A stretch of 64,000 nt of DNA from Escherichia phage NHEP29 (PQ511150.1), one strand, 5' to 3'. Counted from the stretch's first letter, positions 50,164 to 56,711 are shown. Notes: generated by a model not told the origin, from the letters alone. Numbers and translations: made by a program.

Positions 50164-50712
50164 TTAACGAGCCCATTTAATGATTTCTGTAATCAAATAA
50201 TTACGTTCGCTTGCATTAAATCCTATAACTTTGTTAGCACCATCATGATTAAGTAATTGATACGTTTGGATTTTGTTATGAATTGCAAACTCTTCAAAAT
50301 ATGAAATGACTGTATTAAAACCGAATGAAGACAAAGTAATAAGGTCGTCTTCAAAACTTTCAGTCATTTCGTTACGTGTTAAAATAATTGTGAACACATC
50401 ATGGTTTTGGCAAAGACGAACATAATCCTGTTCATAAACGTCAAGAACCGAGTCCACATCTTGTCGAATACGTCCATAAACCCAGTTACTAATATATCCA
50501 CGGTCTAACAGATAAATCTTAGTAGGGTCTAAATAATTCAACATCGTTTCGAAACAGCCGACTTCATTTCGAGACTTAACATCGAAACGCCCATCAACTG
50601 TTCGTTTAGGGAAATCAATCTTTACATATCTTTCACTAATTTCCATTACATCATTAATGAAAGTTGTTTTACCAGCATTATCCGGGCCATCTACTAAAAT
50701 AATTTTAGCCAT
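50164..50712 (-). CDS. P-loop kinase, thymidylate/deoxynucleoside-kinase-like
   Basis: 182 aa; Walker A GPDNAGKTT and DRGYISNWVYG resembling the TMPK DRY…S…Y motif; at the T4 beta-gt position. Confidence 0.7.
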   Translation of the reverse strand: MAKIILVDGPDNAGKTTFINDVMEISERYVKIDFPKRTVDGRFDVKSRNEVGCFETMLNYLDPTKIYLLDRGYISNWVYGRIRQDVDSVLDVYEQDYVRLCQNHDVFTIILTRNEMTESFEDDLITLSSFGFNTVISYFEEFAIHNKIQTYQLLNHDGANKVIGFNASERNYLITEIIKWAR

Positions 50713-50713
50713 T

Positions 50714-51613
50714 TTATTCCTCGATTACGACATCTTCGTATTTAGGTATATTATACGGTGAAGAAATTAAAGCATTAAAGTAGATGAACTCACCAAGACC
50801 CGGATGGAATACTTCTTCAGGATTTTCGAAATATTGAATCTTCGGACGTCCTTTAAGAATTTGATAGTACTCAGTTTTAGTTGGATTAAAAATTCGAATC
50901 AGCGCTTCTTCAGGATACTTATTTCTGTCGAAACTATTATTTGGATCAGTTATATAAAGCGGTTGACCTAATTGAATTGCGCATTCAACCACTTGTTCAA
51001 AACGATAGCATGGGTCACTAATTCGAAATGGATGAAAAATACCATCTAGATGAATAGGAGCCAAATCACCTACAAGACGCTGCATGACGGAAGGACGTAT
51101 AACTTTCTGCGTTACGATAATCTTATTACCATCTGCACCTGCGTTAACCAGCACTTCTTTTTGACGTTCATTCAACACAGTAGTTTGAAGTGAACGATTA
51201 ACAGACAACATGTCGGTTTTTAAGAATTCATCAATATAAAAACGTGGTTTATTAGGGTCTGCAGTGATATTGAAATTGAATTCTACATCAAAAGCGCCGT
51301 CATATCCAGTGATATCTGTGATTAGAAAATCACAATCATAATAAGCAATTAATGAATCAACCACAAATTCATTTTCAGACCAGAAATATTTACGAGTGTT
51401 ATACGCGTTATCTTTATACCATAATGGAACAAACTTAAATTCTGGGAAAAGACGTTCACATTCTTTAATATCAGATGCATTACGTGGATATGTAATCACA
51501 TCACCCGGATTAGCACGGTGCAAATGAAGTTGGAAGTTGCCATCCTTAAGGATAGCATACTGTCCAGTTTCATAAGACCGCATACTCAAGATAGGTACGC
51601 GGAAAATAGCCAT
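50714..51613 (-). CDS. hypothetical protein (299 aa), possible transferase
   Basis: ORF translationally coupled between the kinase and gene 42; no firm motif. Confidence 0.55.
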   Translation of the reverse strand: MAIFRVPILSMRSYETGQYAILKDGNFQLHLHRANPGDVITYPRNASDIKECERLFPEFKFVPLWYKDNAYNTRKYFWSENEFVVDSLIAYYDCDFLITDITGYDGAFDVEFNFNITADPNKPRFYIDEFLKTDMLSVNRSLQTTVLNERQKEVLVNAGADGNKIIVTQKVIRPSVMQRLVGDLAPIHLDGIFHPFRISDPCYRFEQVVECAIQLGQPLYITDPNNSFDRNKYPEEALIRIFNPTKTEYYQILKGRPKIQYFENPEEVFHPGLGEFIYFNALISSPYNIPKYEDVVIEE

Positions 51614-52329
51614 TAGTCAAGGAATCCTTTAACATAATCAAAATCACGTTCAAACACATGGGCACTTACCATGGTATGAGTATAATCACCAACTTCTACA
51701 CCACATTCGTTAGCGATATAATGAAGTAATTTTCCTTGGAGATAAAAATCCAACTGCATAACAACAGCACAGTTCTGAGAACGCATATGACAGTGGGTAT
51801 AAAGCTTACCATCACGAATATAATAAGTCACTGAGTCAGTACATGGATATTCAAGCGTTTCGTCCGAATCAAGCAAAGCCTGATCAGAACTTTCTAAAAT
51901 TTGGAACACAACTCTTCGAGAGTTAGGCTTCTCTTTAAGCTCTTTTAGAAGAGCTGGTAATTGGGCCGCAATGCGAGGACCATAGAAAGTGTTGAAGTTT
52001 GCCGGCAAAACATCTGATTTTGGTTTAGAAATAAATTTAGCGACATTAGGATATGCCTTAAACGCTTCTTCTGCGTTGGTACCACCAGAAATCATAAACT
52101 TCCAGAAGTCTTCGGCATATTCATAAGAGATGCGGTTAATACGTGGGTCAGTCATTTTGAATGATGATGGAGTGTCAACAACTACTGTCATAGACCCAAT
52201 TTCATTACAACGTCCAATACGAGAATCAGTTACGAATTCCGGGTTTTCTAAAATTTCACGATTGACTGCTTTAAATGCGGTTTGAAAATCTGCGGCTTTG
52301 ATATATTTCATTGTGTTATGTTTTCCCAT
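51613..52329 (-). CDS. 42: dCMP hydroxymethylase gp42 (thymidylate-synthase fold)
   Basis: 238-aa ORF with TS-like segments …NSRRVVFQILESSD… and active-site …YPCTDSVTYYIRDGKLY…. Confidence 0.8.
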   Translation of the reverse strand: MGKHNTMKYIKAADFQTAFKAVNREILENPEFVTDSRIGRCNEIGSMTVVVDTPSSFKMTDPRINRISYEYAEDFWKFMISGGTNAEEAFKAYPNVAKFISKPKSDVLPANFNTFYGPRIAAQLPALLKELKEKPNSRRVVFQILESSDQALLDSDETLEYPCTDSVTYYIRDGKLYTHCHMRSQNCAVVMQLDFYLQGKLLHYIANECGVEVGDYTHTMVSAHVFERDFDYVKGFLD

Positions 52330-55894: not shown

Positions 55895-55935
55895 GTTGTG
55901 GTCCTCATTGGTAAGTAGGAGTATTGTACACTATT

Positions 55936-56079
55936 CTAGTTAAAGCATTCATACTTTGCTTGTAGTCCAATCATAATCCATCCAATTACAAGTGTTGGAA
56001 TCATTACTGGAGCCGTTAAGCTCCAGTAGATAGTCATGACAAGCATCAATAGTAAAAGTCCTATTGTTATTGCTTTCAT
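55936..56079 (-). CDS. small hydrophobic peptide (47 aa)
   Basis: Read from sequence: MKAITIGLLLLMLVMTIYWSLTAPVMIPTLVIGWIMIGLQAKYECFN; ATGA overlap with SIS gene stop. Confidence 0.35.
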   Translation of the reverse strand: MKAITIGLLLLMLVMTIYWSLTAPVMIPTLVIGWIMIGLQAKYECFN

Positions 56080-56711
56080 TGTTCGCCTCGTAACATGGCA
56101 CCTAGTGCACCGCCAGGGTGGAACTTAAGGAAGTCATTAGAGGTAAATCCACGCTCAGACGAAAGGTTGATAGCAAAAGTATCGATAAGCGCTAACAACA
56201 ATGTAGTGGACATAGTCGGAGCCAGAGAATTCTCATCAACCTCTACTGCGATGCCTGTACAGAAAGAGTAATCAAAAAGGGCTTCATTTTCTTGTGGAAT
56301 GTCTGGGTTACAATGCAACAGAATCTGTTTGACGTTCGGACGAATCATTTTAAGATGCTTAGCCACGCCTATCATTTCTTCAGTTTTACCAGAACGACTA
56401 ATATGAATCAACACATCATTAGGCGCAATGAATCCTGCATCACCGTGAGAATAATGCCCGGTGTTCAAGTACATACTCGGGATACCGAGTGAAGCAAATG
56501 TCTCAGAAGCTTTAGTTGCAATATTAGCATTCTTACCAACACCTGTAATAATTACTCGGCTTTCATAATTACTAAGTCCTGGGCGTCGAAGAGTTTCTAG
56601 AATAGCGTTATAACGAGCAGGGTTTTGACTAATTACTTTGGCCATAGCGGCCAAAGAAGAAGCTTGTTTTATGATTGCGTCAATAGCGATAGTAATAGGA
56701 GTAGTTTTCAT
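56076..56711 (-). CDS. SIS-domain sugar-phosphate isomerase, KdsD/GutQ-type (putative D-arabinose-5-phosphate isomerase), no CBS domains
   Basis: 211 aa; …ITGVGKNANIA…SHGDAG…ISRSGKTEE…LAPTMSTT…RGFTSNDFLKFHPGGALG… closely parallels KdsD SIS-domain motifs as recalled. Confidence 0.75.
   Translation of the reverse strand: MKTTPITIAIDAIIKQASSLAAMAKVISQNPARYNAILETLRRPGLSNYESRVIITGVGKNANIATKASETFASLGIPSMYLNTGHYSHGDAGFIAPNDVLIHISRSGKTEEMIGVAKHLKMIRPNVKQILLHCNPDIPQENEALFDYSFCTGIAVEVDENSLAPTMSTTLLLALIDTFAINLSSERGFTSNDFLKFHPGGALGAMLRGEQ

Follow-up and report, generated by a model that had tools for sequence, protein, structure and literature searches.

What does Escherichia phage NHEP29 attach to the cytosines of its DNA, and with which enzymes? 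In the stretch analysed here (PQ511150.1; 64,000 nucleotides, hereafter the window), nine close-packed open reading frames (ORFs) lie on the minus strand at 50164-56711, between uvsX and the DNA polymerase gene gp43, with intergenic gaps of -16 to +54 nucleotides. An initial annotation, made from the sequence alone, had read this interval as a sugar-nucleotide cassette that would put arabinose on 5-hydroxymethylcytosine (hmC) of the phage DNA. I found that, as judged by homology, the uvsX-gp43 interval is very probably the published arabinosyl-5-hydroxycytosine DNA hypermodification module. The initial annotation describes an already known system. Mahler 2025 is reportedly counted among the publications on this module. 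A further gene of the cassette, encoding a U32-family Fe-S protein, is discussed below as a candidate for a second hydroxylase. The cassette, its two flanking genes and one outlying gene are as follows (aa, amino acids).

48893-50065: uvsX, flank of the cassette.
50164-50712, minus strand: TMPK-like (thymidylate kinase-like) P-loop nucleotide kinase, 182 aa; phrog_761 'thymidylate kinase' (1.3e-44); P-loop GPDNAGKT; RB69 gp45 homolog.
50714-51613, minus strand: predicted GT-B fold glycosyltransferase, 'arabinosyltransferase 1', 299 aa; RB69 gp46:47, a single ORF here.
51613-52329, minus strand: predicted 5-hydroxy-dCMP synthase with a thymidylate synthase (TS) fold, 238 aa; Thymidylat_synt (2.3e-15); RB69 gp48 homolog.
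52372-52611, minus strand: 79-aa ORF, RB69 ORF049c; its start and the U32 stop share 4 nucleotides.
52608-53768, minus strand: U32-family Fe-S protein, 386 aa with 13 Cys; Peptidase_U32 (9.5e-11); RB69 gp50.
53823-54224, minus strand: small HAD-type phosphatase, 133 aa; capsule-biosynthesis family TIGR01689 (4.3e-13); motif DVDDC; RB69 gp51 and HY126 AfhF homolog.
54209-55894, minus strand: predicted bifunctional kinase/nucleotidyltransferase, 561 aa; RB69 gp52:53 and HY126 AfhE homolog.
55936-56079, minus strand: conserved 47-aa hydrophobic peptide; phrog_3610 (6.8e-27); RB69 ORF054c, with a longer start here.
56076-56711, minus strand: predicted SIS-only arabinose-5-phosphate isomerase, 211 aa; SIS (1e-10); RB69 gp55.
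56752-59463: gp43 DNA polymerase, flank of the cassette.
28828-29928, minus strand: putative second DNA arabinosyltransferase, 366 aa; RB69 ORF003c homolog, outside the cassette and assigned to the same system.

The eight ORFs that had been listed initially are all present on the minus strand within this interval, and their family and domain calls hold in profile searches (Pfam, NCBIfam and PHROG families); the ninth, the 79-aa ORF, had been missed. The equivalent of the 47-aa peptide is annotated as a 47-aa transmembrane ORF in LC53 and HY126. Synteny with the uvsX-42-43 interval of T4 had also been proposed. T4 holds uvsX-segA-beta-gt-42-imm-imm.1-43 in the same interval, and the proposal was therefore right.

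Is the cassette the same as that of RB69? The window belongs to a Mosigvirus. The DNA of the cluster is 97.9% identical to RB69, and many Mosigvirus genomes match the region at an identity of 98-98.5%. The cluster proteins are 94-100% identical to RB69 gp45-gp55: 97.3% for the TMPK-like kinase (RB69p045), 98-99% for the 299-aa protein (RB69p047 plus p046), 99.2% for the gene-42 homolog (gp48), 99% for the HAD phosphatase (RB69p051), 99% for the 561-aa protein (RB69p053 plus p052), and 100% for the SIS isomerase (RB69p055). The outlying 366-aa ORF is 99.2% identical to RB69p003. Thomas 2018 found arabinose on RB69 virion DNA, named the modification ara-hmC, and proposed ORF055c (the SIS protein) and ORF53_52c (the 561-aa protein) for UDP-arabinose synthesis (PMC6024577). 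In RB69 virion DNA, arabinose is on every cytosine (PMC13326640, PMC6024577), and mono- or di-arabinosyl-5-hydroxy-dC replaces dC in the virion DNA of RB69 and Mosigvirus NP (PMC13326640, PMC13390438). The window has near-identical copies of the genes of a phage whose virion DNA carries arabinose (PMC6024577), which bears out both the idea of a DNA-hypermodification cassette and the choice of arabinose as its sugar. The one point that weighs against this assignment is that the function of the module in the window is carried over from RB69 and HY126 on an identity of about 98-99%.

The genes of the 299-aa and 561-aa proteins are whole in the window, whereas the GenBank record of RB69 splits both of them (gp46/47 and gp52/53). 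Thomas 2018 had already corrected the 561-aa protein of RB69 to one ORF (PMC6024577). The intact ORFs of the window support the published view that the splits in RB69 are sequencing errors.

Which base receives the sugar? The gene-42 homolog is 97.9% identical to the crystallised enzyme of HY126, from which it differs in five of its 238 residues (PDB 9iqc/9ir2/9iqu; the PDB sequence is exactly the HY126 gene product). Lee 2026 reported that RB69 gp48 is a flavin-binding 5-hydroxy-dCMP synthase that takes up 18O from O2, and D169N is the diagnostic residue of such synthases (PMC13326640). When the window protein was aligned with E. coli ThyA and T4 gp42, it was found to keep Cys146 (within PCT) and to have the L143E, N177D, and D169N substitutions. 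The signature of the 5-hydroxy-dCMP synthases (Cys146, N177D, L143D/E, and D169N) is complete. By homology, the gene-42 homolog is a flavin/O2-dependent 5-hydroxy-dCMP synthase and not a hydroxymethylase, in which case the sugar would sit on 5-hydroxycytosine via an ether bond. In the published systems, the arabinose is ether-linked directly to the C5-OH of 5-hydroxycytosine (PMC13326640, PMC13390438). As shown for near-identical proteins, the TS homolog would use flavin and O2 to hydroxylate C5 of dCMP; the resulting 5-hydroxy-dCMP would then be phosphorylated and incorporated into DNA in place of C.

How is the sugar donor made? The SIS isomerase matches KpsF/GutQ (2e-32) and KdsD (7e-31) in NCBIfam, both under the full-length cut-offs. 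It covers model positions 47-202 of 328 and reaches 107.7 bits where the cut-off is 505, because the tandem CBS pair is missing. It probably works like KdsD, as a SIS-only form outside the full-length KdsD/GutQ equivalog. The 561-aa protein matches NTP_transferase at its N-terminus (residues 3-99, 8.5e-10) as well as sugar-1-phosphate nucleotidyltransferase families of NCBIfam, and its C-terminus has an APH/choline-kinase-like domain with the kinase motif HGDPNFSN at residue 377. A PDB sequence search with this protein returned distant nucleotidyltransferases only. The isomerase, the kinase/nucleotidyltransferase of about 560 aa, and the small HAD phosphatase are clustered, as a module of the RB69/HY126 type requires. 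According to the summary of He 2026 given in PMC13326640, the HY126 sugar pathway has been reconstituted: the AfhE kinase converts arabinose-5-phosphate to arabinofuranose (Araf)-1,5-bisphosphate, AfhF converts this to Araf-1-phosphate, and the AfhE nucleotidyltransferase makes UDP-Araf. In the window, the SIS isomerase would convert ribulose-5-phosphate to arabinose-5-phosphate, the C-terminal kinase of the 561-aa protein would produce Araf-1,5-bisphosphate, the HAD phosphatase would strip the 5-phosphate to leave Araf-1-phosphate, and the N-terminal nucleotidyltransferase (a UDP-arabinose pyrophosphorylase) would yield UDP-arabinofuranose. The initial proposal that these proteins build NDP-arabinose from ribulose-5-phosphate agrees with PMC6024577 and with the HY126 reconstitution as summarised. 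Its order of steps does not; dephosphorylation had been placed first, whereas in that summary the kinase acts before the phosphatase.

Which enzymes transfer the sugar? The initial scheme had no transferase and left the 299-aa protein without a function. A Pfam search with this protein gave no match. Its AlphaFold2 (AF2) model has a pLDDT of 94.3, and the top PDB matches in Foldseek are the UDP-Glc:tetrahydrobiopterin glucosyltransferase 9v0w and MshA 3c4q (TMq about 0.6). On this model, the 299-aa protein is a GT-B glycosyltransferase, the arabinosyltransferase that was missing from the scheme, which agrees with the 'arabinosyltransferase 1' (GT1 below) of PMC13326640. A second transferase is likely at 28828-29928. 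This 366-aa ORF, which also had no match in the Pfam search, sits between rIIA (26309-28522) and the topoisomerase gene gp39 (29971-31788), the same position as in RB69, where ORF003c has been proposed as the second arabinosyltransferase (PMC6024577, PMC13326640). The window has a GT-B gene beside the TS homolog and an ORF003c homolog between rIIA and gp39, the latter assigned by sequence identity. The 299-aa enzyme would put the first arabinose on the C5 hydroxyl, on either the nucleotide or DNA, and the ORF003c homolog would add the second. Taken with the identity to RB69 and HY126, these tests of the module show that the arabinose call and the enzyme set of the initial annotation were therefore right.

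Lee 2026 leaves the stage of the first arabinose transfer open (PMC13326640). The TMPK-like kinase, GT1, and a hydroxylase form a conserved trio, and the kinase adjoins GT1 in distant phages. The two are paired beside whichever hydroxylase is present, in the window (50164-51613) as well as in the uncultivated contigs L017, L047, L053, L060, L028, and L029. This pairing hints that the first arabinose may be added at the mononucleotide stage, with a dedicated kinase handling the bulky product.

Why does the cassette also have a U32 gene? The initial call of a Cys-rich Fe-S enzyme fits the U32 family; no role had been given to it. The 386-aa protein scores 41.9 bits against PF01136 (gathering threshold, GA, 22.4). 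The top PDB match of its AF2 model (pLDDT 90.5) in Foldseek is the U32 protein Mk0906 (5d88), beyond which only generic TIM barrels were found, and a PDB sequence search gave no match. The invariant residues C192, C209, and C233 align with C169, C176, and C193 of UbiU and with their equivalents in RlhA and TrhP. The phage proteins also have an invariant C-terminal motif, C340-x4-C-x3-C-x2-C, and do not have the DUF3656 domain of RlhA. Among the E. coli paralogs, a hidden Markov model (HMM) of the phage U32 scores best against TrhP (6.5e-7), followed by RlhA (3e-5). RlhA makes 5-hydroxycytidine (ho5C2501) in 23S rRNA and needs prephenate and an Fe-S cluster (PMC5727448). TrhP makes 5-hydroxyuridine (ho5U34) in tRNA independently of O2, in parallel with the O2-dependent TrhO (PMC6599085). 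UbiU and UbiV hydroxylate ubiquinone precursors anaerobically with prephenate as the oxygen donor (PMC10990095). The phage U32 could thus be a second cytosine C5-hydroxylase, with dCMP or the cytosine of DNA as its substrate and prephenate instead of O2 as its source of oxygen; I consider the chances of this proposal to be evenly balanced. If so, Mosigvirus would reach 5-hydroxycytosine by two routes in parallel, through the flavin/O2 enzyme of TS fold under oxic conditions and through U32 in the anoxic gut.

Is the phage U32 gene linked to prephenate? In Kanagawa-, Winkler-, Teguna-, Gualtar-, and Bragavirus and in a Klebsiella phage, the gene between U32 and the TS homolog encodes a chorismate mutase (CM). 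These are bona fide AroQ proteins (CM_2, 41-45 bits; GA 27) with conserved catalytic residues. Four of the six CM genes overlap the stop codon of U32. A short ORF lies between U32 and CM in phiR1-RT and Rgz1, and a homing endonuclease gene in Bragavirus PM2. U32 and CM are still an overlapping pair in the rearranged cluster of Shewanella phage Thanatos-1. CM_2 adjoins U32 in 51 phage records. Seg-type homing endonuclease genes were seen inside the modification cluster of several genera (L004 3854-4492, L005 695-1333, L007 430-1068, and L011 4696-5379), inserted between HAD and U32 or between U32 and CM.

In the window, the slot held by CM in other genera is filled by the 79-aa ORF. It was considered as a diverged or frameshifted CM and rejected, with no CM_2 match at E<=10 and an hhalign probability of 0.2% against the phage CM profile. 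Its family is confined to Mosigvirus and includes versions truncated to 40-58 aa, among them that of HY126. The 79-aa ORF is probably dispensable.

How is the U32 gene distributed among isolated phages? By tblastn, it was found in 221 phage records, all at an identity of at least 81% and all from phages of Enterobacterales or Shewanella, and the synthase was found in 373. Of the synthase-bearing records, the 57 from Acinetobacter phages and the 20 from Rhizobium phages are all without U32, and so are the Agrobacterium and Pseudomonas phages that have a synthase. In Acinetobacter phage Mokit, Pseudomonas phage PspYZU05, and the E. coli Dhakavirus Bp7, the HAD gene and the TS homolog are immediate neighbours. 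Across genera, U32 is the best conserved protein of the cluster (82-85% identity; 70-83% for the TS homolog and 46-68% for GT1).

Does U32 occur where the TS homolog does not? I scanned IMG/VR and annotated the hits with local HMMs, which gave 30 distant U32 lineages; neighbours were scored within 10 kb. The homologs, at 40-58% identity, are on phage-like contigs among nucleotide-metabolism genes. A GT1-family gene is near U32 in 18 of the 30 lineages and a TS homolog in only two; nucleotide or glycosyltransferase neighbours were found in 26. Two layouts recur. In one, GT1, SIS, and the kinase/nucleotidyltransferase are followed by U32, in some cases with a fusion of DAHP synthase and CM (DAHPS-CM) before it. 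In the other, the order is TMPK-like kinase, GT1, and U32, so that U32 occupies the slot of the Mosigvirus TS homolog. A DAHP synthase, a DAHPS-CM fusion, or a CM adjoins U32 in eight of the 30. Assignment of the DAHP_synth_1 neighbour as Kdo8P synthase, by which it would have been connected with arabinose-5-phosphate, was rejected; DAHP synthase models give 2.6e-70 and the KDO8PS model only 3e-17, and CM_2 is fused to several of the copies. With phage DAHP synthase and CM to supply it, U32 may in many uncultivated phages be the sole hydroxylase upstream of a GT1-type glycosyltransferase. The simplest reading, to which I would give neither more nor less than even weight, is that the U32 subfamily makes the C5 hydroxyl from prephenate as an alternative to the O2-dependent enzyme, which it would supplement in Mosigvirus.

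Several other arrangements were seen in the uncultivated phages. A dCMP deaminase gene is immediately upstream of the U32 homolog in three contigs (L012 7447-9086, L016 7504-9083, and L071 9540-11110) and overlaps it in L012 and L071. The contigs with this pair are of phage origin and 27-466 kb long, and in L012 and L016 the pair is near a DNA polymerase III alpha subunit fused to uracil-DNA glycosylase and a thymidylate kinase. The pairing suggests a uracil nucleotide as the possible substrate of some U32 enzymes, which would give 5-hydroxy-dU. A conserved protein of about 250 aa follows U32 in L012, L016, and L018. In L017 (8001-10000) and L053 (10001-11979), a gene for a TET-associated glycosyltransferase (TAGT; 33.9 bits, GA 27.5) overlaps the 3' side of U32, and dUTPase/DCD and UDP-galactopyranose mutase genes are nearby in L017. 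These U32-TAGT loci may represent a different glycosyl-5-hydroxypyrimidine system with no TS homolog. Environmental T4-like phages (L027 1605-10607, L028 7739-10594, and L029 7715-10555) have no U32, but Flavodoxin_2, a TS homolog, a GT1 relative, and a TMPK-like kinase. In L028 and L029, the Flavodoxin_2 gene is immediately next to the TS homolog; in L027, it is about 5 kb upstream. This flavodoxin-like protein is possibly a flavin reductase, which would fit a flavin/O2 enzyme.

Several points weigh against a prephenate-dependent hydroxylase. The proposal is a genomic one, and no U32 enzyme at all has yet been reconstituted in vitro (PMC10990095). Only three of the four canonical Fe-S cysteines are aligned, and the candidates for the fourth ligand are the invariant C203 or C158. 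The window has no CM, as neither the six frames of the slot nor those of the whole window gave a match to a CM HMM, and Mosigvirus would therefore rely on PheA and TyrA of the host for prephenate. Dhakavirus Bp7 infects E. coli and has the synthase without U32, so that the host correlation holds in one direction only. On this ground, the rule that a facultatively anaerobic host implies U32 was discarded; it holds only in its converse form, with U32 never occurring in a phage of a strict aerobe. The correlation also covers few independent lineages, and the uncultivated genomes that seem to have no TS homolog could have one at a distance of over 10 kb. In the searchable literature, a phage U32 described as a prephenate-dependent base hydroxylase was not found; He 2026 and Mahler 2025 are outside that scope and may already assign U32. 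The word prephenate does not occur in Lee 2026, where RB69 gp50 is a 'sugar or heterocycle reductase' in one table entry (Table 1 of PMC13326640).

This label raises the question of whether U32 belongs to the sugar branch, as such a reductase or another enzyme tailoring the arabinose donor, rather than to base hydroxylation. U32 does adjoin SIS and the kinase/nucleotidyltransferase in many uncultivated phages. However, Acinetobacter and Pseudomonas phages have an otherwise complete arabinosylation cluster without U32, and one of them, Acinetobacter phage DLP3, has been shown to have mono- to tri-arabinosylated DNA (PMC13326640). AfhE, AfhF, and the isomerase already account for UDP-Araf synthesis, as far as the summary of He 2026 goes. 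Conversely, several loci with a TMPK-like kinase, GT1, and U32, or with a dCMP deaminase and U32, have no sugar-activation genes. The known roles of U32 proteins are hydroxylations that need prephenate, and the phage gene is linked to CM or DAHP synthase. A role in the sugar branch is thus unlikely.

Equally doubtful is that U32 does not hydroxylate phage nucleotides and has a different target, for example rRNA or tRNA of the host in the manner of RlhA and TrhP, or is a collagenase-type protease, with its place in the cluster being incidental. The family has traditionally been annotated as a peptidase, and TrhP and RlhA are the paralogs to which the phage HMM is closest. Nevertheless, in many genera U32 has a fixed place, with the sugar genes on one side and the base-modifying genes on the other, its neighbours in the distant lineages are mostly nucleotide or glycosyltransferase genes (26 of 30, as above), and DUF3656 is missing.

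Two other readings concern the cassette as a whole. Could gene 42 make hydroxymethyl-dCMP as in T4, so that the product is arabinosyl-hmC? The gene occupies the position of T4 gene 42, belongs to the TS family, and ara-hmC was the original name of the RB69 modification in Thomas 2018 (PMC6024577). However, the identity to T4 gp42 is only 25%, and at the D169 position the window protein has Asn (RSQN) where T4 gp42 has Asp (RSND), the change that marks 5-hydroxy-dCMP synthases. It thus shows neither the Asp at ThyA D169 nor the close similarity to gp42 that would indicate a dCMP hydroxymethylase of the T4 type. Moreover, it is near-identical to the HY126 and RB69 enzymes, which were shown to make 5-hydroxy-dC with 18O2, and a later paper calls the original hmC assignment erroneous (PMC13390438). 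This reading is very improbable. The initial call of a dCMP hydroxymethylase was right at the level of the family only, and hmC has to be replaced by 5-hydroxycytosine as the acceptor. The weakest reading, an auxiliary metabolic module that serves the surface polysaccharide of the host (Kdo, capsule, or lipopolysaccharide arabinose), is suggested by the KdsD/KpsF-like SIS protein, the capsule-type phosphatase, and the GenBank annotations 'kpsF' and 'capsule biosynthesis protein', and can hardly be true of a cluster that is embedded among replication genes (uvsX and gp43), has no Kdo8P synthase, flippase, or lipid-linked transferase, and has a counterpart in RB69, with arabinose on every cytosine of its virion DNA.

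Elsewhere in the window, two neighbouring motB-like paralogs were seen on the minus strand (34170-34688 and 34688-35182; PF17613, 4.6e-38 and 1.6e-08).

What is gained from this locus? The initial annotation re-derived from raw sequence a system that was worked out from 2018 to 2026, and by itself added nothing new. The remaining value is in the U32 and CM lead, which may be new. If the lead is true, the phage protein would be the first U32 hydroxylase from a virus and also the first to act in DNA-nucleotide metabolism. A hydroxylase that requires O2 is a problem in the anoxic gut for an enteric phage that replaces every cytosine; an O2-independent bypass would solve it and make fully modified DNA possible there. 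U32 hydroxylases are widespread in anaerobic metabolism, and a phage enzyme with a possibly small, soluble nucleotide substrate would be a tractable model for oxygen donation by prephenate. The search for glycosylated-pyrimidine phage DNA could also be extended to genomes without any TS homolog, which is relevant to phage therapy, restriction evasion, and sequencing artefacts.

How does the module compare with known systems? The arabinosyl-5-hydroxycytosine system of RB69 and HY126 has the same genes in the same order and position as the window. The window differs from RB69 by about 2% at the nucleotide level, and its 79-aa ORF is full length, while that of HY126 has only 40 aa. The clusters of Acinetobacter phages DLP3 and Mokit and Pseudomonas phage PspYZU05 share the core of SIS, kinase/nucleotidyltransferase, HAD, TS homolog, GT1, and TMPK-like kinase. 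Unlike the window, they have no U32, and their HAD gene abuts the TS homolog; CM is also absent from them. DLP3 further differs in its extra glycosyltransferases and tri-arabinosylated DNA. The glucosyl-hmC system of T4 resembles that of the window in its place in the uvsX-gp43 interval and in its logic, in which an enzyme of TS fold makes a C5-modified dCMP and glycosyltransferases follow. In the window, a hydroxyl would be introduced with flavin and O2 by an enzyme with D169N, which T4 gp42 does not have, whereas T4 introduces a hydroxymethyl with methylene-tetrahydrofolate; the sugar donor would be made by the phage, whereas T4 takes UDP-glucose from the host.

Pairs of O2-using and O2-independent enzymes are known in TrhO/TrhP, in UbiI-H-F/UbiU-V, and in the phage's own NrdAB/NrdDG, and the proposed pair of the TS homolog and U32 would parallel them. 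Unlike in those cases, the pairing in the window phage is drawn solely from gene content and distribution. The phage U32 is a separate, viral subfamily with weak HMM scores to the E. coli paralogs, an extra Cys4 motif, and no DUF3656, and its presumed substrate is a deoxynucleotide or DNA, unlike those of RlhA, TrhP, UbiU, and UbiV. With these four, it shares the U32 TIM barrel of Pfam, and three of its cysteines align with the Fe-S ligands of UbiU, RlhA, and TrhP. The chemistry of RlhA at cytosine C5 is the chemistry proposed here for the phage U32, whose gene is genetically linked to the supply of prephenate.

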